Under the pieces are notes generated by a model. It saw only the letters and a program-made list of their open reading frames with translations. It was not told the origin of the DNA and ran no database searches. Positions 11,569 to 35,745 of a DNA stretch of 60,438 nucleotides are shown piece after piece (the stretch's first letter is position 1; the number at the start of each line of letters is the position of its first letter). Source of the DNA: Thermoanaerobaculia bacterium (GTDB lineage: Bacteria > Acidobacteriota > Thermoanaerobaculia > UBA5066 > Gp7-AA6); assembly GCA_046261875.1 (NCBI GenBank), contig JBHENW010000200.1:1-60438 (forward strand), given 5' to 3'. Position numbers and translations under genes: made by a program.

Positions 11569-12354
11569 TTACCGATTCGCGTAACCCGCCCGTCCCACGA
11601 TTCCTTCCCGGGACATCGAAAAGATCTTATCACAGCGATTCGCGAGCTCCGGGTTGTGCGTGACGAGAACGGTCGTCATCGCACGCTCCCGGTGCAGCTG
11701 CTGGAGCAGATCGAAGACGATGCGGGCGGATTCAACGTCCAAATTGCCCGTCGGCTCGTCCGCCAGGAGCAGGCGCGGTCCGCGCGCGAGGGCGCGGGCG
11801 ATCGCGGCCCGCTGCTGCTCGCCGCCGGAGAGCGCGAGGGGTCGATGGCTCGCGCGGTGTCCCAGGCCGACGCGCTCGAGCATGACGAGGGCCTGCCGCT
11901 CGGACTCCGCGCGCTGGAGTCCCGCGATGCGGTGAGGCATCGCCGCGTTCTCCAGCGCCGTGAACTCGGGCAGCAGGTGGTGGTACTGGAACACGAACCC
12001 GATCTTCTCGTTGCGGAAACGCGCGCGCTCGCGGGGCGGGAGATCCTCGAGCGACTGCCCGAAGATCTCCACGCGGCCGGCATCGGGTCGGTCGATTCCC
12101 CCGAGCAGGTGCAGCAGCGTGGACTTTCCGACGCCGGACGGGCCCATGATCGCCGCGAACGTCCGATCCTCCAGCGCGAACGACAGGTCGGTGAAGACCG
12201 TGACCGGCGCCCCCTCCCCGGCATAGGTCTTGGAGACGCCGAGGGCGCGAACCGAGATCTCCTCCGGGGAGGTCGCGGGTGGTGGGTGGTGGGTGATGGG
12301 GTCCGAGCCCTCTTCCCCAGCACCTACCACCTTCCACCGACCACCTTCTTTCAT
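11569..12354 (-). CDS. lolD: Lipoprotein-releasing ABC transporter ATP-binding protein
   Basis: GPSGVGKST, IGFVFQYHHLLPEF, LSGGEQQR, DEPTGNLD. ATGA overlap with the upstream permease stop. Confidence 0.88.
   Translation of the reverse strand: MKEGGRWKVVGAGEEGSDPITHHPPPATSPEEISVRALGVSKTYAGEGAPVTVFTDLSFALEDRTFAAIMGPSGVGKSTLLHLLGGIDRPDAGRVEIFGQSLEDLPPRERARFRNEKIGFVFQYHHLLPEFTALENAAMPHRIAGLQRAESERQALVMLERVGLGHRASHRPLALSGGEQQRAAIARALARGPRLLLADEPTGNLDVESARIVFDLLQQLHRERAMTTVLVTHNPELANRCDKIFSMSREGIVGRAGYANR
12277..12345. repeat. Heptamer-repeat imperfect inverted repeat inside the lolD 5' coding region
   Basis: GGGTGGT GGGTGGT GGGTGAT arm (12277-12300) faces a CACCTAC CACCTTC CACCGAC CACC arm (12321-12345). 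Confidence 0.8.
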
Positions 12355-13541
12355 CGCGACAGCCTCAACGCCTCGCCCGGCGCCAGCCGGGCCGCCGCCC
12401 GGGCCGGAAGGACCGCGGCGCCGACCGCCGTCGCCAGCGCGAAGACTGCGACGAGGAAGACCTCCCCGGGATGGACGGCGAATGGGACGTGGGTCAGGAG
12501 ATAGACGTCGGCGGGAAGCGGCACGGCGCGGGTGCGATCGAGCAGGGTCGCGACCGTCACGCCCAGGGCGACCCCGGCGGCGGTGCCGAGGAGCCCGATG
12601 AGGGCCCCGAGCGTCAGGTAGACGCGGCCGAGGGCCTCCGGCGTCGCTCCGAGCGAGGCGAGGACGCCCAGGTCCCGCTTCTTCTCGACGACGAGCAGCG
12701 CGACGTTGGACACGATGTTCAGCGCCGCGACGAGGATGACGAGCGCGACCGTGACGAAGATGACGAGTTTCTCCAGCCTCAGCGCAAAAGAGAGGGGCGC
12801 GTTCAGGTCCTTCCAGGTCTGGATCCGCGTTTCCGCCGGAAGTCGCGGGGCCAGTCGCGCGGCGACTTCCTCGGCGCGCTCGGGATCACGCAGCCGCGCC
12901 TCGTAGGCGCCCGCTCCGTCGGTGACTCCGGCGAGCAGCCGCGCCGAGCGCTCGGAGACCTCGACGTCCGCCGCCTTTTCCAGCGCGCCGATGCGCATGA
13001 CGTCCGCGACCTGGAAGACCATCGTGACCGGGATCGGTCCGAGCGGCGAGAGGCGCGTTCGGGAGGAGGTGACGCGGATGCGCCCGCCACGGGAGACCCC
13101 CGTGCGCGCCGCCACGGATCCGCTCACGCGCGCGAGCGGGAAGGACCCTTCCCCCGAGGGCTCCAGGGAGCTCTCCTCTTTCGCCGCATTGCGGTAGCGG
13201 ACGGGCAGCGCGCTCTCCCCTTCCGGGTCGGCGACCCAGGCGCGGCCCGCGATCGATGGAGCGACCGCGGCGACTTCCGCCTGCGCGGCGAGCAGCCGGC
13301 GCACGCTCTCGGCGTCGGCGAGGCGGGCTCCCCGCTCCGGCGAAACGACGAGGTGCGGGCTCCGCTCGGCCATCTGGGCGCGGATCCGGTCCTGGAAGCC
13401 CGAAAGGAGCGACAGCGAGATGACCAGGGCCGCGACGCCCACGGCGAGCCCCAGCACCGCGATCGTCGAGATGAGCGCCACGTGGGCGCGCCGGCGCGAG
13501 GCGGCGAGGTACCGGAGGGCGACGAAGGACGGAAAGCTCAT
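12351..13541 (-). CDS. LolC/E-type (FtsX-family) lipoprotein-releasing permease
   Basis: FVALRYL, GVAALVISLSLLSGF, VEKKRDLGVLASLGA, YLLTHVPF. Start taken at ATG 13541 (MSFPSF). Confidence 0.88.
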   Translation of the reverse strand: MSFPSFVALRYLAASRRRAHVALISTIAVLGLAVGVAALVISLSLLSGFQDRIRAQMAERSPHLVVSPERGARLADAESVRRLLAAQAEVAAVAPSIAGRAWVADPEGESALPVRYRNAAKEESSLEPSGEGSFPLARVSGSVAARTGVSRGGRIRVTSSRTRLSPLGPIPVTMVFQVADVMRIGALEKAADVEVSERSARLLAGVTDGAGAYEARLRDPERAEEVAARLAPRLPAETRIQTWKDLNAPLSFALRLEKLVIFVTVALVILVAALNIVSNVALLVVEKKRDLGVLASLGATPEALGRVYLTLGALIGLLGTAAGVALGVTVATLLDRTRAVPLPADVYLLTHVPFAVHPGEVFLVAVFALATAVGAAVLPARAAARLAPGEALRLSR

Positions 13542-22966: not shown

Positions 22967-24184
22967 CTACTCGTAACGGAGCGCTTCGATCGGGTCGAGA
23001 CGAGCGGCCTTGCGCGCCGGGTAGAAACCGAAGAACACGCCGATGGCTGCCGAGAATCCGAATGCGAGCATCACGGCGGCCGGCGAGATCTGGATCGGCC
23101 ACTGGGCCTTCCAGGCGAGCAGCCGCGAGGCTCCCACACCCAGGGCAATGCCGATCGCCCCGCCCGCGACGGAAAGCGTCAAGGCTTCGATCAGAAACTG
23201 CGTGAGGATGTCCTTCCCCTTCGCGCCGATCGCGAGGCGGATCCCGATCTCGCGCGTGCGCTCCGTCACGGAGACGAGCATGATGTTCATGATCCCGATT
23301 CCGCCGACGAGCAGCGAGATCGAAGCGGCGGAGGCGAGCAGGACGGAGAGCGTCCGGGAGGTCTCGTCCGCCGTCTCGGCGATCTCCTGTTGCGAACGGA
23401 TCTGGAAGTCGGCATCCCCCCCGGGAGGGATGCGATGCCGCTGTCGCAGCAGCGCGTCGATTTCGGACTGCGCCTGCGCGACGGACTGGCGGGAGACGGC
23501 CGACGCCATCACGACGTCGATGCGATTGCGCCCCTTGAGCAGCCTGATCACGGTGGTATACGGGGCGATGACGACGTCGTCCTGATCCTGGCCCGTCGTG
23601 TTGCCGCCCTTCCTCTCGAGCACGCCGATGACGCGGAAGGGAAAGTTCTTGATGCGTATCGTCTCCCCGACCGGGTTCTGGGCATCGAAGAGCGCCTCGG
23701 AAACGGTGGCTCCGAGGACGGCGACTTTGGCCGCCGAGCGCACCTCGGACTCCCCGAAGAACGCGCCACGGTCCACGTTCCAGGCGCGGATGAAAGGCCA
23801 TTCCACGCCGACCCCTTGCGTCTGTGTCGACCAGTTCATCGTTCCGGCGACGATCTGGCCGCTGGCCCGGGCCACCGGCGAGACGTACGAGACGGATGGA
23901 GCCTCCGTCTTGATGGCGGCGACGTCCTCTTCGGTGAGCGCCGAGTCCCCGGTGAAGACGCGGGCGCCCGACTGCGTGGTGGCACCCGGGAAGACCATCA
24001 GGAAGTTGCTGCCGAGGGCGCTGATCTGGGATTGGATCGCGGCCTGCGACCCCTGTCCGACGCCGATCATCGCGATGACGCAGGCGACGCCGATGATGAT
24101 CCCGAGCGCCGTCAGGGTCGACCGCATCTTGTTGCGCACGATGGCCTTGAGGCCGACCTTGAGGATCGTCAGGAACTTAAACAC
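22967..24184 (-). CDS. MacB-type ABC transporter permease
   Basis: MRSTLTALGIIIGVACVI, VGGIGIMNIMLVSVTERTREIGIR, LDPIEALRYE. GTG start at 24184 follows GGAGG. Confidence 0.92.
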   Translation of the reverse strand: MFKFLTILKVGLKAIVRNKMRSTLTALGIIIGVACVIAMIGVGQGSQAAIQSQISALGSNFLMVFPGATTQSGARVFTGDSALTEEDVAAIKTEAPSVSYVSPVARASGQIVAGTMNWSTQTQGVGVEWPFIRAWNVDRGAFFGESEVRSAAKVAVLGATVSEALFDAQNPVGETIRIKNFPFRVIGVLERKGGNTTGQDQDDVVIAPYTTVIRLLKGRNRIDVVMASAVSRQSVAQAQSEIDALLRQRHRIPPGGDADFQIRSQQEIAETADETSRTLSVLLASAASISLLVGGIGIMNIMLVSVTERTREIGIRLAIGAKGKDILTQFLIEALTLSVAGGAIGIALGVGASRLLAWKAQWPIQISPAAVMLAFGFSAAIGVFFGFYPARKAARLDPIEALRYE

Positions 24185-24959
24185 GGCACACTCCTCCCGC
24201 ACGCCGCCGCTGGGAGACGGGATGGTCCTCGACGACCTGCCCGTCACGGAAAACGACGATGCGTCGGGCGTACTCGGCGATGTCGGCTTCGTGGGTGATG
24301 ACGACCACGGTCTTGCCGTCGTCGTTGAGCGCCTGGAAGACGCCCATGACCTCTTCGGAGGTCTTCGTGTCGAGGTTTCCGGTCGGCTCGTCCGCCAGGA
24401 TGAGTTTGGGGTCGTTGATGAGCGCACGGGCGATCGCGACGCGCTGCTGCTGGCCGCCGGAGAGCTGGCTGGGGAAGTGGCCTTCCCGCCCCGCCAGGCC
24501 CACGATGGCCAGGCACCGGCGCGCTTTCGCTTCGCGCTCCGCCGACGTGAGCCGACTGTTGGCCGAGTAGATCAGGGGGAGCTCGACGTTCTCGATCGCG
24601 GAGGTGCGCGCGAGGAGGTTGAAGGATTGGAAAACGAACCCGATCTTCCCGTTCCGGATCTCGGCTCGCTCGTCCCGGTCGAGCCCGGACACGTCCTGCC
24701 CATCGAGGAAATAGCGGCCCGAGGTGGGTCGGTCGAGGCATCCCACGATGTTCATGAAGGTGCTCTTGCCGGAGCCCGAAGGTCCCATGACCGCGACGAA
24801 CTCTCCCGGCTCGATCGAGAGCGACAACCCGTCGAGCGCCCGCACTTGCACCTCGCCCATCTGATAGACGCGCTCGAGGTGTTCGATGCGGATGACGGAA
24901 GGTGTCGATCCGGGGTCGGTCCGGAGGGCCCCGACCGCCGCGGACTCCGAAAGGGCCAT
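24177..24959 (-). CDS. MacB-type ABC transporter ATP-binding protein
   Basis: GPSGSGKST, IGFVFQSFNLL, LSGGQQQR, DEPTGNLD. Confidence 0.92.
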   Translation of the reverse strand: MALSESAAVGALRTDPGSTPSVIRIEHLERVYQMGEVQVRALDGLSLSIEPGEFVAVMGPSGSGKSTFMNIVGCLDRPTSGRYFLDGQDVSGLDRDERAEIRNGKIGFVFQSFNLLARTSAIENVELPLIYSANSRLTSAEREAKARRCLAIVGLAGREGHFPSQLSGGQQQRVAIARALINDPKLILADEPTGNLDTKTSEEVMGVFQALNDDGKTVVVITHEADIAEYARRIVVFRDGQVVEDHPVSQRRRAGGVCRV

Positions 24960-26215
24960 CAGAACCCGCGGCGGCCGCCGCCGCCGGCGCCGCGCCCCGC
25001 GGGGCCGGTCCCGGAGATCTGCGCGCGGGCGGTCGCGACGCCCGTGACCACTGCGTCCCCCTCTTTCAGGTCGCCCGAGACCACCTGGGTGTACCGGCCG
25101 TCGGTGATTCCGGTGCGGATCGCAACCGGCTTCGGATCGCCGTCGGGCTCCGCGGGAGCCGCATAGACCGTCTGGGGACGAAGAGCGACCGCGCCGGCCC
25201 GTCCACCTCCGGCGGTCCGTCCGAACTGGCGAGTCGCCGCCGCCGGCCCCGTCGCTGATCCCGTGCGCGCCGCCCGCTCCTCCGCCGAAGTCGCGTCGGT
25301 CACCTCGGGGCGGAAACGGAGGGCCGCGTTCGGAATCCGGAGGACGTCGCGGACGCTCTCGACGTCGATTGTGACGTTCGCGGTCATCGTCGGACGCAAC
25401 AGCATTTCCGGGTTGGAGACCTCGACGATGACCGGATAGGTGACCACGTTCTGGTTGACGGTCGCATTGAGCCGGATCTGGCTCACCCTGCCCCGGAACT
25501 CCCGCTCGGGGTAGGCATCCACGTTGAACCGGACGGGCTGTCCGACCTTCACCCCTCCGATGTCCGACTCCGCGATGTCCGCAGCGACCTGCATCTTGGT
25601 GAGGTCCTGCGCGATCGTGAACAGGGTCGGCGCCTGAAAAGAGGCCGCGACCGTCTGTCCCACGTCGTATTGCCGCGCGACGACGACTCCATCGATCGGC
25701 GCCTCGATCTTCGTGTAGCGAAGGTCCGTGAGAGCCTGGTCGAGCGCCGCGCTGGCCTGGCGCACGCTGGCGCGGGCGACGTCCGCGTCCGCCTTGGCCT
25801 GGTCATAGTCCGCCTGCGGCGTGAGCTGCTGCTGCCTCAGGGCTTCCTGCCGGCGCAGAGAAATTTCCGCGTTGCGCAGCTCGATCTGCGCTTTCTGGAG
25901 GGCTGCGCGGCTCTGCTCGACGCGCGCCTCGAATGGGGTCGGATCGAGCTCCGCGAGGAGGTCGCCCTTCTTGACCTGGCTGTTGAAGTCCGCGTGGAGT
26001 CTCGCGATGATCCCGGAGACCTGGCTGCCGACCGCGACCGTCGTGACGGCGGAGAGAGCTCCGGTCGCCGTGACAGTCTTCGTCACGGTGCCGCGGTCCA
26101 CTTTCGACGTGCGGTACTTCGGTTCGGACTTGCTGCGGCCGCCCACGAGGAAGAGCACGCCGGCGACCGCGCCGACCGCAACGAGAACCCAGATCAGCGT
26201 TTTTCTCGTCTTCAT
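24959..26215 (-). CDS. MacA-like periplasmic adaptor (membrane fusion protein)
   Basis: N-terminal TM, VGSQVSG, IEAPIDGVVV, GQTVAASFQAPTLF, LRIPNAALRF. Confidence 0.92.
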   Translation of the reverse strand: MKTRKTLIWVLVAVGAVAGVLFLVGGRSKSEPKYRTSKVDRGTVTKTVTATGALSAVTTVAVGSQVSGIIARLHADFNSQVKKGDLLAELDPTPFEARVEQSRAALQKAQIELRNAEISLRRQEALRQQQLTPQADYDQAKADADVARASVRQASAALDQALTDLRYTKIEAPIDGVVVARQYDVGQTVAASFQAPTLFTIAQDLTKMQVAADIAESDIGGVKVGQPVRFNVDAYPEREFRGRVSQIRLNATVNQNVVTYPVIVEVSNPEMLLRPTMTANVTIDVESVRDVLRIPNAALRFRPEVTDATSAEERAARTGSATGPAAATRQFGRTAGGGRAGAVALRPQTVYAAPAEPDGDPKPVAIRTGITDGRYTQVVSGDLKEGDAVVTGVATARAQISGTGPAGRGAGGGGRRGF

Positions 26216-30788: not shown

Positions 30789-31244
30789 TCAGATCGCAGG
30801 GAGCGCGCCGGCGGGTTCGGGCTGCGTCTTCTCGCAGCAGCCGGATCCGGGGCCGCAGTGTCCTTCTTCCTCCAGATCTTCCAGCACCGCGTAGACCTCC
30901 CACTCGTTGCCGTCCGGATCGGCGAGCCAGATCTTCTCCTGGAGCGCATAACAGCACGCCGTCAGGGCTTCGATCCTCGGAGACAAGCCGTTCGCCTCGA
31001 GCCGGCGTCGCCAGCCGTGAACTTCGTCGGGCGACCCGACGCGGATACCGAGGTGCGACAGGACCCCGCCCCCGGCCGGCGCCGTGGTGCTGCCCGGCTG
31101 CAGGGCGAGGTGGATTTCCGGGTTGGCCGTCACGAACTTGACGTACCCCGGTTTCTTTTTTGCCGGTTCCCCGAGGAAACGCGAATAGAACAACGTGGAC
31201 TTCTCCAGGTCCCCGACCTGCAGCGAAATGTGAACCCCCGCCAT
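30789..31244 (-). CDS. arsI: ArsI/CadI-family VOC metalloenzyme (C-As lyase-like)
   Basis: VHISL, SHLG, vicinal ACCYA, DPDGNEWE, C-terminal GCC. Confidence 0.8.
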   Translation of the reverse strand: MAGVHISLQVGDLEKSTLFYSRFLGEPAKKKPGYVKFVTANPEIHLALQPGSTTAPAGGGVLSHLGIRVGSPDEVHGWRRRLEANGLSPRIEALTACCYALQEKIWLADPDGNEWEVYAVLEDLEEEGHCGPGSGCCEKTQPEPAGALPAI

Positions 31245-31262
31245 GATGTCCTCCTATCTATA

Positions 31263-31280
31263 GATCGAGAAATTTCGATC
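31263..31280. promoter_or_regulatory. Putative ArsR/SmtB operator upstream of arsI
   Basis: Perfect inverted repeat GATCGA-N6-TCGATC in an AT-rich spacer, matching the ATCAA-N6-TTGAT-type spacing. Confidence 0.6.
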
Positions 31281-31297
31281 AATCGTGGCAAATTTTT

Positions 31298-31657
31298 TCA
31301 GACCGACCGCGCCGTTTCGCTGGCGACGGATGCGAGCGCCCCCTCGTCGCGGCGATAGAACATCCAGCGCCCGCGCTTCTCGGCGATCACGAGCCCGGCG
31401 CGGCGGAGGATCGCGAGGTGGTGCGACGTGGCGGCCTGCGAAAGCCCGATCGCCTCCTCGACGTCGCAGGCGCAGAGCCCGGCCTCACCCGGCGAAACGA
31501 GCGAACAGCAACTCCCGCCGCGCGCGCGAAGCAGGTCGAGGATCCTGAGCCGGGTCGGATCGCCGAGCGCCCGGAAGGCCTGGATCAGGTCCGGTGAAGC
31601 CGAAACGGAGCTCCCCCGGCCGCTTTGGACCGGCAGGCTCCTTCTCATCGAATCCAT
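31298..31657 (-). CDS. arsR: ArsR/SmtB-family metalloregulator
   Basis: FRALGDPTRLRIL, LCACD (alpha3N-type site), SQAATSHHLAILRRAGLV, RGRWMFY, plus an extra SCCS. Confidence 0.88.
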   Translation of the reverse strand: MDSMRRSLPVQSGRGSSVSASPDLIQAFRALGDPTRLRILDLLRARGGSCCSLVSPGEAGLCACDVEEAIGLSQAATSHHLAILRRAGLVIAEKRGRWMFYRRDEGALASVASETARSV

Positions 31658-31659
31658 AC

Positions 31660-31695
31660 ATCTGCATTCTTAGATACGTTCGCGGCCTCTGTCAA
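31660..31695 (-). promoter_or_regulatory. arsR promoter (TTGACA at 31690-31695) with overlapping operator-like repeat ATCT-N8-AGAT
   Basis: Perfect -35 hexamer, 17 nt to TAAGAAT. The inverted repeat at 31660-31675 has the same ATC-N10-GAT spacing as the arsI site. Confidence 0.5.
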
Positions 31696-32380
31696 CCCCC
31701 CTTTTTGGCCGGCTTTTTCTGTGAACGTGGGCGTGGACGCGGCCCCGGACGTGTGCGAGCCCCTCCCGCAGGAACCACGGGACCATGAGGAGCGAGAGGG
31801 CCGGGTCCAGCCACGCGGGCGCGCCGGCGAGGCCGCCGACCATGGCGAGGAGGGTCAGAAAGGAGAGCGCGGAGCAGGAGATCGATTCCTTGGCTTCCGC
31901 CGCGAGGCCTTGGCTGCCGAGCACCCGGGCCGTCCGCCACTTGAGCCATCCGATGATCGGCATGCCGAACGAAGCGAAGATCGTCAGGAAGAGTCCCAGG
32001 ACGCTCTCCTCGGCGTGGCTCCCGGCGGTCAGCTCGTGCACCCCCCGCACGAGAACGTAGGCGGCCAGGAGGAGGAAGGAAACGCCGATCCAGCGGGCGA
32101 GGTTGCGGTCGTGGCGCGCGTGGTCGGTCTCCTCGTCTGCCAGGCGGCGCAGGTGGCGGACGGCGAGAAACGCGGCTCCCCCCTCGATCGCGCTCTCCAC
32201 CGAGAAGGCCAGGAGCGCCAGGCTTCCCGTGCGGATCGCCTCGTAGAGGCCGAGCCCCCCTTCGCCGAAGACGTGCAGAAAGGTCAGCCCGAGGAGCCAG
32301 TACATCCGGCGTCGGAGGGCCTCTTCCCTCGCGGCCGGGGGGGCGATCACAGGGCCCGCCGTCGCGGTCGCGTCTCCCAT
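31670..32380 (-). CDS. Cation diffusion facilitator-like transporter (TM domain only, TMEM163-like)
   Basis: GSLALLAFSVESAIE, six TM segments, LAAEAKESISC, WLDP, His-containing tail. Confidence 0.78.
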   Translation of the reverse strand: MGDATATAGPVIAPPAAREEALRRRMYWLLGLTFLHVFGEGGLGLYEAIRTGSLALLAFSVESAIEGGAAFLAVRHLRRLADEETDHARHDRNLARWIGVSFLLLAAYVLVRGVHELTAGSHAEESVLGLFLTIFASFGMPIIGWLKWRTARVLGSQGLAAEAKESISCSALSFLTLLAMVGGLAGAPAWLDPALSLLMVPWFLREGLAHVRGRVHAHVHRKSRPKRGVDRGRERI

Positions 32381-32439
32381 CCAGCCATTCTATGCAGGCC
32401 CTCGCCGCCGGCCCGCTGCGCGAAATACAATCCCCGGCG

Positions 32440-32805
32440 ATGGCGTTGCCACCAACGATGTTGTGGCGGTTGCGCGTGGCTCGAAGCGCCCGGCTCATCC
32501 TGTGCGTCGCGGCGCTGCTTTCGGTGGCCGGCTCTTTTGGCTTGCACCCCGAGCCGGCCGATTCTTCTTTTCTACCCCTGCCGACCGCGCCCTCCGATGG
32601 ATCGCCGGAGCTCCGCAGAGCGGTCGCCCCGCGGGACAGCTGCATCGCGTGTCTTTCCCAGCGCCCGCACTCTCTCGCCTCGGTCATCGACGCGCCCTCG
32701 GCGCGCATTCGGGTCGTCCCTTACGCGCCCCGGCCGGCGCTTCTCCTTCCCCAGCGGCTCCAAGCCGCGAACCACGAAGGCCGCGCCCCTCCGACCGCCT
32801 CCTGA
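32440..32805 (+). CDS. DUF2946/CruR-like leader protein with CxxC and C-terminal RAPP
   Basis: Hydrophobic N-terminal segment, CIAC (32641-32652), RAPP (32782-32793) just before the stop. TACAAT lies 8 nt upstream of ATG 32440. Confidence 0.72.
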   Translation: MALPPTMLWRLRVARSARLILCVAALLSVAGSFGLHPEPADSSFLPLPTAPSDGSPELRRAVAPRDSCIACLSQRPHSLASVIDAPSARIRVVPYAPRPALLLPQRLQAANHEGRAPPTAS

Positions 32806-32819
32806 CGAGCCGGTCTCGT

Positions 32820-32839
32820 CTTCCGCCCCGCGGCGGAAG
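32820..32839 (+). promoter_or_regulatory. GC-rich hairpin between the RAPP leader and the beta-barrel gene
   Basis: CTTCCGCC-CCGC-GGCGGAAG, perfect 8-bp stem. Confidence 0.5.
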
Positions 32840-32870
32840 GCATTCACGACATTTCGTTACGGGGGGGCCA

Positions 32871-33989
32871 GTGACCAGATCACGCGTTCTTTCCTTTCTC
32901 CTGCTCGCGCTCGCCGCGAGTGCCTTCGCATCCGGGCAGGAGCCCACGCCGACGCCGACACCCACGGCGACACCGGGGCCGGAAGAGACTCCCGCCCAGC
33001 CAACCGGCGCGTCGCCCGCGCCGAACTACTTCAACCCGGCCATCGCCGTGATCGGCAACTTCCTCGGGGTCGCAGGAAAAAACCTGCTCGAGAACCGCGA
33101 TTCCCTCCAGATGCGCGAGTCGGAGATCTCGCTGCAGGCTGTCGTGGATCCCTTCGCCCGCGCGGACTTTTTTGTAGCCGTCACGGACGAGGAGGTCGAG
33201 CTGGAGGAGGGCTTCATCACCTTCACGAGCTTGCCCGCGGATCTCCTCGTCAAGGTCGGAAAGTTCAAGGCGCAGATCGGAAAGGTCAACCTGATGCACC
33301 TGCACCTCCTCCCGTGGGTGGACGTGCCGCTCCCCAACGAGAACCTCATCGGAGGGGAGGAGGGGTGGAACGACGCGGGCGTCTCGGTCGCCCGGCTTTT
33401 CCCGCTACCCGGGGACACTTTTTCCGAGCTCACCTTGCAGGTCTTCCGCGGAAAATCAGAGGGGCTCTTCGACGCGCCCTCCAGGAGCGATCTCGCGTAC
33501 CTCGGCCACTATCGCGCCTACCGTGACTTCGGGGACGATCACAACGTCGAACTCGGAGCCACCTGGGGCCGCGGCTCCAATGGGGCATCCGAGGACGCCG
33601 AGACGACCGTCGAGAACCTCCATCTCGTGTATCGCTGGAAGCCCCTGACGGGACGGCCCTACCGGCAGTTCATTCTCCGAAGCGAGCTCACACGGAGCCG
33701 CCGCGAGCAGCCCGAGGGGCGGCAGAGCGCGCGCGGCTTCTTCGTCGGGGGCGACTATCGGCTGAGCCGCCGGTGGTGGGCGGGCGGACGCTACGAGTTC
33801 GCCGACCGGGCCGACGAAGCGGCGGCGCGGGATCGCGGCGAGGCCGTCACCCTCACTTTCTGGCCGAGTGAGTTCTCTCAGCTCCGGGCCGAAGGGCGCC
33901 GCCGCCGCTACGCGGGAGGCGTGACCGCCAACGAGCTGCTCGTGCAGCTCCAGTTTTCCATCGGCGCGCACGGCGCGCATCCATTCTGA
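32871..33989 (+). CDS. Outer-membrane beta-barrel protein associated with Zn/Mn uptake
   Basis: Signal peptide, Pro/Thr linker, NPAIAVIGNF, ESEISLQAVVDPFARADF, amphipathic strands, C-terminal QFSIGAHGAHPF. GTG start at 32871. Confidence 0.78.
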   Translation: MTRSRVLSFLLLALAASAFASGQEPTPTPTPTATPGPEETPAQPTGASPAPNYFNPAIAVIGNFLGVAGKNLLENRDSLQMRESEISLQAVVDPFARADFFVAVTDEEVELEEGFITFTSLPADLLVKVGKFKAQIGKVNLMHLHLLPWVDVPLPNENLIGGEEGWNDAGVSVARLFPLPGDTFSELTLQVFRGKSEGLFDAPSRSDLAYLGHYRAYRDFGDDHNVELGATWGRGSNGASEDAETTVENLHLVYRWKPLTGRPYRQFILRSELTRSRREQPEGRQSARGFFVGGDYRLSRRWWAGGRYEFADRADEAAARDRGEAVTLTFWPSEFSQLRAEGRRRRYAGGVTANELLVQLQFSIGAHGAHPF

Positions 33990-33997
33990 GGAGCGCC

Positions 33998-34918
33998 ATG
34001 AAGAAAACGGTTTTGATCTGCCTACTCGCCTTCCTGGCCGCCGCGTTCTCCCCGGCCGCCCCGATCCGTGTCGTCACCAGCCTCCAGGACTTCGCCTCGC
34101 TCGCGCAGACGGTCGGGGGCAACCGCGTCGAGACGTTTTCCCTGGCCCGGGGGTATCAGGACCCGCACTTCGTCGAGCCGAAGCCTTCCTTCATCCTGCG
34201 GCTTTCGAAAGCGGACCTCCTCATCGTGGCCGGCCTCGACCTCGAGATTGGATACCTTCCGCCGCTTCTCGACCAGAGCCGGAACGCGAAGATTCGGCCG
34301 GGCGGCCCCGGCCACCTCGACGCCTCCGTCGGATGCGAGATTCTCGAACGACCCCGGGGGGTCGTGACTCGGGCGATGGGCGACGTCCATCCCTTCGGCA
34401 ATCCGCATTACTGGCTCGACCCGTCCAATGGCCGCGTCATCGCTCGCTCGATTGCGTCGCGGCTCATCCAGCTCGACCCGGCCGGCGCCGCGGCCTATCG
34501 CGCGAACCTCGCCGCATTCGAAGCGAAGCTGACGGAAGGCGAGAAGCGGTGGGATGCCGCTCTGGGGCCGTACGCCGGAACCCCGGTCGTGACGTACCAC
34601 AACTCGTGGCCGAATTTCCTCAAGCGCTTTCGGCTCATTGCCACCGGATACGTCGAGCCGAAGCCGGGAGTCCCTCCATCGCCCGCGCACATCGTCTCGC
34701 TCGTCAACCTCATGAGGGAGAAGAAAGTCCGGGTGATTCTCATGGAGCCTTACTTCGACGAACGGACGCCGCGTTCCATCGCATCCCGGACCGGCGCGAA
34801 GCTGCTCACGTTCATCCCGTCGGTCGGGGGCGTCCCCGCGGCGCGCGACTACATCGCGCTCTTCGACTACGACGTGAAGCTGCTGGCGGAGACTTTGCGG
34901 GAGAAGACGGGTCGATGA
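33998..34918 (+). CDS. Metal ABC transporter substrate-binding protein (ZnuA/TroA family)
   Basis: Signal peptide, QDPHFVEPKP, GDVHPFGNPHYWLDP, TYHNSW, EPKPGVPPSPAH. Confidence 0.9.
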   Translation: MKKTVLICLLAFLAAAFSPAAPIRVVTSLQDFASLAQTVGGNRVETFSLARGYQDPHFVEPKPSFILRLSKADLLIVAGLDLEIGYLPPLLDQSRNAKIRPGGPGHLDASVGCEILERPRGVVTRAMGDVHPFGNPHYWLDPSNGRVIARSIASRLIQLDPAGAAAYRANLAAFEAKLTEGEKRWDAALGPYAGTPVVTYHNSWPNFLKRFRLIATGYVEPKPGVPPSPAHIVSLVNLMREKKVRVILMEPYFDERTPRSIASRTGAKLLTFIPSVGGVPAARDYIALFDYDVKLLAETLREKTGR

Positions 34919-35745
34919 CCGTACTCGACGTCCTCCTTCCCGCGTTCGTCGCGGGATTGATCCTCACGGGGATCCACGCCTATCTGGGCGTGCACGTCGT
35001 CGAGCGGGGCGTCATCTTCGTGGACCTCTCGCTGGCGCAGATCGCGGCGCTCGGAGCGACGATCGGCTATCTCTTCGGGTACGACGTGCACTCGGACCGC
35101 GGTTACGTCTTCTCCCTGATGTTCACCTTCATCGGCGCCGCGATCTTCGCCATCACGCGGCCGCGCCACACCACCCGGATCCCGCAGGAGGCCATCATCG
35201 GAATCGTGTACGCCGTCGCGGCGGCCGCCTCCATCCTCGTCATGTCGAAGTCGACGCGGGAGACCGAGCACCTCAAGGAGATGCTCGTCGGAAACGTTCT
35301 TTCGGTCTCCTGGCGGGAGCTCTCCCACATGGCCATGCTCTATGCGGCCGTCGGAGTGTTTCACTGGATCTTCCGGAAAAAGTTCCTGCTCATCTCGATG
35401 AACGAGCAGGAGGCGGTCCGTCAGGGGGTCCGCGTCCGCCTGTGGGACTTCCTCTTCTATGTATCTTTTGGCTTCGTCGTGACCTCTTCGGTGGCGATCG
35501 CCGGCGTGCTGCTCGTTTTCTCGTTCCTGATCGTGCCGTCGGTCTCCGCGATGCTCTTCACCGAGCGCCTGGGGCCCCGGCTGGCGATCGGCTGGACCAT
35601 GGGCGCCATCGTCTCAGCGCTCGGTGTCTATCTTTCCTACCTCCTGGACCTGCCTACCGGAGCCACGATCGTGACGACCTTCGGGGCGGCGTTGCTCCTG
35701 ATGGCTGGCGCCCGCCAGGTTCTGAGTCGGCGGCCCGCGGCATGA
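34915..35745 (+). CDS. Metal ABC transporter permease (ZnuB-like)
   Basis: GIHAYLGVHVVERGVIFVDLSLAQIAALG, GVLLVFSFLIVP, LPTGATIV. ATGA overlap with the SBP stop. Confidence 0.88.
   Translation: MTVLDVLLPAFVAGLILTGIHAYLGVHVVERGVIFVDLSLAQIAALGATIGYLFGYDVHSDRGYVFSLMFTFIGAAIFAITRPRHTTRIPQEAIIGIVYAVAAAASILVMSKSTRETEHLKEMLVGNVLSVSWRELSHMAMLYAAVGVFHWIFRKKFLLISMNEQEAVRQGVRVRLWDFLFYVSFGFVVTSSVAIAGVLLVFSFLIVPSVSAMLFTERLGPRLAIGWTMGAIVSALGVYLSYLLDLPTGATIVTTFGAALLLMAGARQVLSRRPAA

Follow-up and report, generated by a model that had tools for sequence, protein, structure and literature searches.

A putative metal-sensing arrest leader of the CruR/CutF kind ahead of a porin-ZnuA-ZnuB operon in Acidobacteriota

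Introduction

Metal-sensing arrest leaders such as CruR and CutF, whose nascent peptides couple a ribosome stall to a metal, are a recent discovery and have been studied for copper only, mainly in Proteobacteria. Here we examine an open reading frame (ORF) of 121 codons in a stretch of 60,438 nucleotides (nt) from a Thermoanaerobaculia bacterium (contig JBHENW010000200.1 of assembly GCA_046261875.1), hereafter called the window, in which the ORF stands first in an operon for a porin-like protein, a ZnuA-family binding protein and a ZnuB-type permease. On balance we consider it probable, judging from sequence comparison, that this ORF is a regulatory leader of the CruR/CutF kind, that is, a metal-sensing, self-stalling nascent peptide that would control translation of the porin-ZnuA-ZnuB operon.

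CruR of Bordetella pertussis (Bp2923), a DUF2946 protein, carries a CXXC motif and a RAPP motif, the latter three residues from its C-terminus (PMC9426467). The two motifs are separated by 45 intervening residues, a distance that varies by one or two across the DUF2946 family, and copper regulation is strongly reduced when the spacing in CruR is changed by five residues (PMC9426467). When the nascent chain senses copper, the arrest is relieved and Rho-dependent termination can follow, and DUF2946 members generally have an export signal (in >95%) and stand first in copper-related operons (PMC9426467). In vitro, CruR arrests with proline codons in the ribosomal P and A sites, RSPP being partly permissive; outside arrest peptides, few tetrapeptides are avoided as strongly in bacterial proteomes as RAPP and RSPP (PMC12992588). 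CutF of Rhodobacter capsulatus belongs to the same family as CruR and is exported co-translationally.

The cargo reported in published leader surveys consists of TonB receptors, PepSY, PCuAC, YcnI, RND (resistance-nodulation-division) efflux, HupE/UreJ, DsbA and thioredoxin-like proteins. None of the published CruR, CutF and RAPP leader surveys names a porin class among the neighbours. The terms "ZnuA" and "zinc" are absent from the texts of the CutF survey and of PMC12992588, and they are not among the neighbours named in the CruR paper (PMC9426467).

The leader family

The window is 67% G+C and long spurious ORFs are frequent there, so the leader frame had to be checked by its G+C content at third codon positions (GC3) and by its homologues. 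Its GC3 of 0.79 is the highest among the three forward frames. Searches returned 13 close proteins, with E-values down to 6e-53, and a profile search of 1.8 billion representative sequences gave 99 representative clusters of the family. The leader ORF is a real gene. About 95 genomic and metagenomic loci were compared. In the protein searches and in a genome scan with a 14-sequence alignment, the named sources of the family are all metagenome-assembled genomes (MAGs) of Acidobacteriota, class Thermoanaerobaculia. Conservation figures given below refer to an alignment of 102 sequences, motif and spacing counts to 98 proteins, and codon counts to 85 unique leaders. The parts of the leader in the window are as follows.

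32440-32805, plus strand: leader ORF, 121 amino acids as defined in the preliminary description (ATG at 32440, TGA at 32803-32805), identified by homologues and motifs
32455-32541, plus strand: basic and hydrophobic N-terminal helix, residues 6-34, predicted by AlphaFold2 (predicted local distance difference test, pLDDT, about 91-94) and by the family hydropathy pattern
32530-32556, plus strand: G-S-F-G-L-H-P-E-P motif at the end of the helix, with G34 and H36 invariant and L35, E38 and P39 at least 90% conserved
32641-32652, plus strand: C-I-A-C (residues 68-71), candidate metal-binding pair Cys68 and Cys71, both invariant
32653-32781, plus strand: 43-codon spacer from CxxC to RAPP, fixed in length and free in sequence by the spacing counts and a gap-free alignment
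32782-32793, plus strand: R-A-P-P codons CGC GCC CCT CCG (residues 115-118), followed by T-A-S-stop; candidate arrest motif and candidate anti-Shine-Dalgarno tract

The preliminary description, made from the letters of the window alone, had pointed out a 121-residue ORF with a hydrophobic N-terminus, CIAC, and RAPP three codons from the stop, and all of these are present in the sequence. It had also made its reading depend on the conservation of RAPP and CxxC in orthologous loci; across about 100 clusters CxxC is invariant and R(A/S)PP near-invariant, an outcome that supports this reading.

Mean column identity in the family is merely 29%. Invariant positions are G34, H36, C68, C71, P117 and P118, and L35, E38, P39, G114 and R115 are at least 90% conserved. 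The family signature has four parts, namely a signal-like helix, G-L-H-P-E-P right after it, C-x-x-C, and G-R-(A/S)-P-P near the C-terminus. Their conservation makes His36 and Glu38 candidate ligands of a metal. The arrest-type motif is RAPP in 68 of the 98 proteins and RSPP in the other 30, and exactly three residues follow it in 81. The distance from the first cysteine to the arginine is 47 residues in 94 proteins and 46 in the other four (43 or 42 intervening residues), and the 47-residue spacing is found in all but one of the genomic and metagenomic loci. Unlike this fixed spacing, the distance from the histidine to the first cysteine is variable, ranging from 25 to 43 residues.

The N-terminus of the window leader is basic and then hydrophobic (MALPPTMLWRLRVARSARLILCVAALLSVAG...). 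Across the family this segment has a median hydropathy of 1.55 and is preceded by a median of three Arg/Lys residues. It is predicted to be a Sec signal peptide or an N-in signal anchor. With the 102-sequence alignment as input, AlphaFold2 gave a confident helix for residues 6-34 only, the rest being of low confidence with two short helices, and the leader is thus predicted to have no folded domain beyond the N-terminal helix.

Comparison with described leaders

Matches to PF11162, the Pfam profile of DUF2946, were found for 25 of the 102 relatives, with a best E-value of 6.4e-4, and this profile was by far the commonest match. The five relatives with listed scores reach 14.7-19.8 bits, against a gathering score of 23.7. 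In all five alignments the profile is covered from about position 24-47 to its last position, 117, and the match ends within 3 residues of the protein C-terminus. Profile searches of the 1.8 billion representatives and of a collection of 5.8 billion sequences recovered the leader family only, and no annotated DUF2946 protein. CXXC, a C-terminal RAPP, the spacing between them, a predicted N-terminal signal and the first position in a metal operon are all features by which CruR/DUF2946 proteins are recognised, and the leader family has each of them. The sub-threshold PF11162 matches, the motifs, the spacing, the topology and the operon position together favour the view that the family is a remote branch, so far without annotation, of the CruR/DUF2946 kind; it is possible that it has instead converged on a CruR-like signature without common descent.

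Like CruR, the leader is the small first gene of a metal-import operon and has a fixed CXXC-RAPP spacing, its 43 intervening residues lying at the edge of the DUF2946 range (PMC9426467). CruR works through the nascent chain and not through the finished protein, and we assume the same for the leader family. There are also clear differences. G-L-H-P-E-P is an extra invariant motif that is not among the two DUF2946 motifs of the CruR paper (PMC9426467). CruR is known from Proteobacteria, ahead of a TonB-dependent transporter, whereas the leader family belongs to Acidobacteriota and precedes a porin and ZnuA/ZnuB. The intergenic region measures 162 nt behind CruR but 59-70 nt, and structured, in the leader family. 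CruR encodes its RAPP in frequent codons, whereas the leader family uses rare U-ending codons that form an anti-Shine-Dalgarno tract, and where the output of CruR is Rho-dependent termination, that predicted here is a translational switch between the RAPP codons and a Shine-Dalgarno (SD) sequence.

CutF resembles the leader family as a Sec-targeted nascent sensor with a cysteine motif and a C-terminal proline stall, the last being putative in the leader family. In CutF the SD sequence of the following gene is masked by an intergenic stem-loop until a stalled ribosome opens it, and an analogous fold is predicted here. CutF has CXXXC and a PPP stall dependent on elongation factor P (EF-P); copper induces the stall and the cargo is a detoxifying multicopper oxidase. 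The leader family, in contrast, has CxxC and RAPP, its putative arrest codons are themselves one strand of the predicted shielding helix, and its cargo is an importer.

Likeness to ApdA/ApdP and to SecM-secA lies in the C-terminal R-A-P-P (RAGP in SecM), with proline codons in the P and A sites at an arrest that is predicted for the leader family, and in the position of the leader 5' of the regulated gene, whose ribosome-binding site (RBS) is exposed by the stalled ribosome, again as predicted here. However, ApdA/ApdP and SecM monitor the Sec/YidC machinery and are released by the pulling force of translocation, whereas the leader family has a candidate Cys2-His site of metal type and is accompanied by metal transport genes. 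Caulobacter CC2720 (before czrCBA) and Cupriavidus CzcI are DUF2946-type genes beside zinc, cadmium or cobalt systems, so that such genes are not tied to copper alone. Both head efflux pumps, as does one member of our family (locus L037, described below), and neither is linked to a ZnuABC-type importer; CzcI, unlike the leader family, has no C-terminal proline motif.

Predicted pairing of the RAPP codons with the next Shine-Dalgarno sequence

The gap between the leader and the GTG start of the porin-like gene at 32871 is 65 nt (32806-32870), and the corresponding gap is 59-70 nt in the 30 loci measured. RNA folding predicted the following elements around it.

32793-32815, plus strand: stem-loop around the last sense codons and the stop codon (TGA 32803-32805), with equivalent stems in many loci
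32818-32841, plus strand: 10-bp hairpin with an 8-bp core formed by CTTCCGCC (32820-32827), the loop CCGC and GGCGGAAG (32832-32839)
32846-32857, plus strand: small 4-bp hairpin, in other loci mostly a GCCGGC...GCCGGC stem abutting the SD sequence
32861-32873, plus strand: SD sequence GGGGGGGC (32861-32868) and GTG start (32871-32873) of the porin-like gene, paired with 32782-32792

The Ala-Pro-Pro codons GCCCCUCC (32785-32792) pair in the predicted fold with the SD tract at 32861-32868, and the Arg codon (32782-32784) pairs with the GTG start. This long-range RAPP-SD helix encloses the three stems at 32793-32815, 32818-32841 and 32846-32857. Between the Arg codon and the next start codon the RNA has a folding energy of -49.8 kcal/mol (z = -4.0 against dinucleotide shuffles), and its centroid is the same as the minimum-free-energy structure. 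In the relatives L034 and L035 the RAPP-SD pairing is a perfect 9 bp, GCCCCUCCG with CGGAGGGGC. Minimum-free-energy folds pair the RAPP codons with the SD sequence in most loci, with differing sequences in the inner stems. MAFFT alignment with RNAalifold returned just the long-range helix and the hairpin next to the SD sequence; sequence differences between loci led to misalignment of the remaining stems. In folds extended by 60-90 nt on the upstream side, the SD sequence was almost always paired (median probability 0.99).

The preliminary description had noticed the perfect 8-bp hairpin at 32820-32839, which is indeed there and extends to 10 bp, and had supposed that it might be the switch. 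By itself it is not; it is one of the three inner stems within the RAPP-SD helix. A hairpin is found at the same place in other loci, with different sequences. The hairpin was also considered as an intrinsic terminator and rejected, as no U-tract follows 32818-32841 and a terminator scan of the intergenic region found none. A ribosome arriving at RAPP would have to unwind the stop-codon stem-loop (32793-32815), which recurs in many loci and may serve in pausing, in the efficiency of termination or as a component of the OFF fold.

When a ribosome footprint was placed on RAPP, the predicted energy needed to open the porin RBS fell from 15.6 to 11.1 kcal/mol in the window (a drop of 4.5). The median across loci fell from 11.1 to 9.8 kcal/mol (p = 1e-6; this and the p-value given below are inflated because the loci are related), and in L034 and L006 the drop was 7 kcal/mol. 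We regard these calculations as partial support for the switch, not as decisive.

Codon choice in the putative arrest motif

The first Pro codon of the motif is CCU in 71 of the 85 unique leaders (84%). In the flanking genes CCU makes up 8.2% of Pro codons and 19% of first codons in Pro-Pro pairs. The Ala/Ser codon ends in U in 57 of the 85, against a background of 4.8% for GCU (12% before Pro) and 4% for UCU. A Pro-Pro or Ala-Pro context as the sole cause of the U-ending codons is thereby ruled out, the context frequencies of 19% and 12% comparing with 84% and about 69%. The wobble position of the second Pro codon, which lies outside the core helix, has no bias toward U (CCC 54, CCU 17, CCG 13), and the Gly codon before the motif varies too. 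This free variation at neighbouring synonymous sites argues that the codon bias is selected.

For the codons actually used, pairing with the SD region has an energy of -11.95 kcal/mol, compared with a synonymous expectation, weighted by codon usage, of -8.39, which makes the real pairing stronger by 3.6 kcal/mol (p = 4.5e-14). Where the base after GGAGG is A, 79% of loci have U at the Ala/Ser wobble position; where that base is U, 45% do. A compensatory change is seen in the clade of the window, which has GCC with GGGG instead of GCU with GGAG.

The operon behind the leader

The leader is first in its operon in about 95 loci, and porin, ZnuA and ZnuB genes follow wherever enough sequence is available, with one exception (L037). 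The usual neighbourhood consists of genes for a thioredoxin and a cation-diffusion-facilitator (CDF) protein on one strand and, divergently, the leader, a protein of about 380 amino acids, ZnuA and an ABC-3 permease. In the window the genes concerned are these.

32871-33989, plus strand: porin-like outer-membrane beta-barrel gene; signal peptide, Pro/Thr-rich linker, 16 predicted strands, C-terminal GAHGAHPF
33998-34918, plus strand: ZnuA-family periplasmic binding protein with a three-His (zinc-type) site; PF01297, E 1.6e-50
34927-35745, plus strand: ABC-3 (ZnuB-type) permease; PF00950, E 1.4e-38
31670-32380, minus strand: divergent CDF (efflux) gene; PF01545, syntenic in most loci with enough upstream sequence

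The preliminary description had placed an uptake operon of ZnuA/ZnuB type 65 nt after the leader stop. Both the gap and the ZnuA/ZnuB genes stand, but the first gene is that of the porin-like protein and not znuA. No Pfam or NCBIfam match was obtained for the porin-like protein. Its AlphaFold2 model has a pLDDT of 66, and Foldseek matched it to OprO and general porins at E-values of about 1e-9. Its linkage with ZnuA/ZnuB suggests that it is the outer-membrane entry route for the metal.

The porin-like family is large, with 5278 matches at E≤1e-3 among 8000 candidates scored, and almost without annotation. A few members carry PF27998, and the His-rich C-terminal GAHGAHPF is invariant.

The closest solved structure to the window ZnuA is Synechocystis ZnuA, with which the histidines of its DPH, NPHYW and YHNSW motifs are aligned; we take these three positions to be the zinc ligands of the Synechocystis structure. 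An ATPase (ZnuC) gene was not found in the operon, either in the window or in any related locus extending far enough, and the only two ABC ATPases of the window (11572-12885 and 24180-25802, both on the minus strand) are LolD/MacB-like. For a ZnuABC-type importer, all NCBIfam equivalog scores fall short of their cut-offs.

In the exceptional locus, L037:6001-12112 (ENA ERZ25039463 contig_51131), the leader occupies its usual place and is followed by a heavy-metal efflux operon of the OEP-MFP-RND type (outer-membrane efflux protein, membrane fusion protein and RND pump). A 57-codon ORF that starts like the porin gene (VKTRK...) overlaps the efflux operon, and the RAPP codons are still paired with the SD sequence. 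It appears that in L037 the cargo has been exchanged naturally and the leader has stayed as it was.

Discussion

From the observed motifs, spacing, operon position, codon bias and predicted pairing we infer an arrest, the binding of a metal, the identity of that metal, the compartment in which it is read and the sign of the response, as follows. The leader would be translated and its N-terminal signal helix would engage the membrane or the translocon. On reaching R-A-P-P the ribosome would arrest, its P site occupied by the first Pro codon (Pro117) and its A site by the second. The distance from CxxC to the peptidyl-transferase centre would then be 46-49 residues, which would place CxxC just past the exit tunnel or, with the signal helix engaged, where SecYEG opens into the periplasm, and His36/Glu38 would mark the trans end of the membrane helix. 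Only at the arrest could a Cys2-His(-Glu) site form, with the variable loop of 25-43 residues hanging free, and the fixed Cys-Arg spacing together with the variable His-Cys loop fits such a sensor geometry. Metal bound at this site would alter the duration of the arrest.

On free mRNA, the RAPP codons would act as an anti-SD strand paired with the porin SD sequence and start codon, and the operon would be off. A stalled ribosome would cover about 32776-32803, that is, the anti-SD strand and the stop-codon stem, and while it was parked on RAPP the porin SD sequence and start would be free for a second ribosome, turning the operon on. After release, termination would occur four codons on and the helix would re-form. 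By analogy with CruR, and with an importer as cargo, it is most likely that metal would release the arrest and that scarcity would turn the operon on, although the sequence is compatible both with release (the logic of CruR) and with prolongation (the logic of CutF). A Rho component in the output is possible. The binding protein is of the three-His zinc type, which makes a metal other than copper plausible, and zinc is the favoured candidate given this protein, the CDF neighbour and an ArsR/SmtB gene in the clade of the window (see below). It is possible, though we hold it as a tentative and somewhat doubtful proposal, that the leader, which occurs throughout the class Thermoanaerobaculia, is the first zinc-responsive nascent-peptide sensor, in which periplasmic Zn(II) would be read by a Cys2-His(-Glu) site at the translocon mouth and the arrest codons would double as the anti-SD strand.

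Several observations weigh against a metal-sensing arrest leader with the translational output just described. The preliminary description had invoked DUF2946 proteins as the precedent, but the window leader itself gave no match to PF11162 even at E≤10, and none at all in Pfam and NCBIfam scans. Four of the six core pairs of the RAPP-SD helix are invariable, CC being fixed by the Pro codons and GG by the SD sequence, so that the RNA evidence rests on the bias at the wobble positions, and there the Ser wobble U is kept in 45% of the loci whose partner base is U. The relatedness of the loci, which inflates the p-values, counts here too. With 60-90 nt of upstream context, the partner of the SD sequence is the RAPP tract in only about 60% of loci. 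Folding with and without a ribosome, proposed at the outset as a check, gives a lower predicted opening energy with the ribosome in the window, but in about half the loci a ribosome on RAPP leaves this energy no lower, since in an RNA so rich in G+C other C/U-rich tracts can take over the pairing. The efflux genes of L037 show that the cargo is no guide to the sign of the response. Finally, CxxC is also a classic Cu(I) site.

That last point bears on whether the sensed metal is copper, as for CruR and CutF, with the operon switched by copper stress. CxxC is the copper-sensing motif of CruR (PMC9426467), most DUF2946/CutF-like leaders head copper genes, and the L037 leader heads an OEP-MFP-RND efflux system of Cus/Czc type. 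The binding protein, however, is of three-His zinc type and its closest solved structures are zinc ZnuA proteins, the partner gene encodes a CDF protein with an ArsR/SmtB regulator added in the clade of the window, the invariant His and Glu near the Cys pair suit tetrahedral Zn(II), and CutF-like leaders for other metals are already suspected in the literature; we therefore rate copper as unlikely. We think it slightly more unlikely still that the output is transcriptional, the stalled ribosome hiding a Rho-loading (rut) site so that release leads to Rho termination before or inside the porin gene and the RNA fold is secondary. For this there is the precedent of CruR (PMC9426467), and the last 80 nt of the leader (32720-32799) are the most C-rich, G-poor stretch of the region (C/G 2.05), the region of the Pro/Thr linker in the porin gene being C-rich too (C/G about 1.6). 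Yet only 59-70 nt of tightly structured RNA separate the leader from the next gene (the corresponding region has 162 nt in Bordetella), and a rut site leaves the bias toward rare anti-SD codons unexplained. Sequestration of the SD sequence would also leave untranslated porin mRNA open to Rho, and the two routes could combine.

The signal helix, the Cys/His motifs and the constant company of transporter genes would also suit a stable small protein, exported or membrane-anchored, that serves as a metallochaperone or an accessory subunit of the transporter and in which RAPP is structural. This is very unlikely in our judgement, given that AlphaFold2 predicts no folded domain beyond the helix, that the stretch joining the motifs varies freely in sequence but not in length, and that the related CutF is degraded on export. 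RAPP and RSPP are moreover avoided in bacterial proteomes except in arrest peptides (PMC12992588), and a structural role would not explain a RAPP three residues from the stop or its codon bias. A leader that monitors secretion or the periplasmic thiol-disulfide status, in the manner of SecM or in connection with Dsb proteins and with no metal sensing, could likewise make use of the signal helix and of a Cys pair oxidisable in the periplasm; RAPP leaders before DsbA or thioredoxin genes exist (PMC12992588), and there is a thioredoxin gene nearby. But that gene is not downstream of the leader; it is encoded on the opposite strand, past the CDF gene. Metal transport genes are the cargo in every locus, and the invariant His and Glu fit a metal site, so that we find this explanation highly improbable.

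If the metal-sensing arrest leader is as we propose, a design like that of CruR and CutF would be present in Acidobacteriota, in a family missed by Pfam and labelled "hypothetical" in every database, and such a leader would stand, as a further novelty, ahead of a zinc-type importer. One four-codon stretch would have been selected both as peptide and as RNA, and the two roles of the RAPP codons are separable by synonymous recoding. The family forms a clean natural data set, with about 100 clusters, a fixed 47-residue ruler, an extra invariant motif and one swap of cargo to efflux, and it can be used to test how metal binding by a nascent chain is coupled to the release of arrest. For annotation of these soil bacteria, two further elements are to be placed with ZnuAB, namely a regulatory gene that is conserved and a porin family so far without annotation.

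Further features of the locus

The start codon conserved in the family is ATG 32458, which gives a leader of 115 amino acids and lies 27 or 28 residues ahead of GLHPEP in most inspected loci. ATG 32440 is present in some clades only and is about 9 nt past a -10-like box, so that a leader begun there would be nearly leaderless. A 137-residue version from ATG 32392 was rejected, this ATG being inside the promoter of the divergent CDF gene and missing in the homologues. No canonical SD sequence was seen ahead of the leader, and an Rfam scan of 32200-33000 at E≤1 gave no match. The box mentioned above is as follows.

32426-32431, plus strand: -10-like box TACAAT within the conserved GAATACAAT, about 27 nt 5' of the conserved ATG in nearly all inspected loci

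This TACAAT/GAATACAAT element is likely the promoter of the leader transcript, by its conservation and position; a sigma-70 scan did not find a full two-hexamer promoter.

The CDF gene and the leader have a common control region. The minus strand carries a conserved TAGAAT box (reverse complement of 32387-32392) at a distance of 6 nt from the ATG of the CDF gene that follows it (reverse complement of 32378-32380), and most inspected loci are alike in this, which suggests that the CDF mRNA may be leaderless.

Two extra genes lie between the thioredoxin and CDF genes of the window (30789-31657, minus strand), encoding an ArsR/SmtB metalloregulator with a CAC motif and a glyoxalase-family protein, which has a C-terminal Cys-Cys and resembles CadI/ArsI. 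They are confined to the window, L034-L036 and the contig carrying P0001, and the other loci have neither. In L012 and L023 (Acidobacteriota MAGs MFD02199.bin.2.111 and bin.2.50), the matches to the leader (L023), the CDF protein, the porin and ZnuB are split over several frames, which looks like the result of insertion/deletion errors in assembly and not of real pseudogenes.

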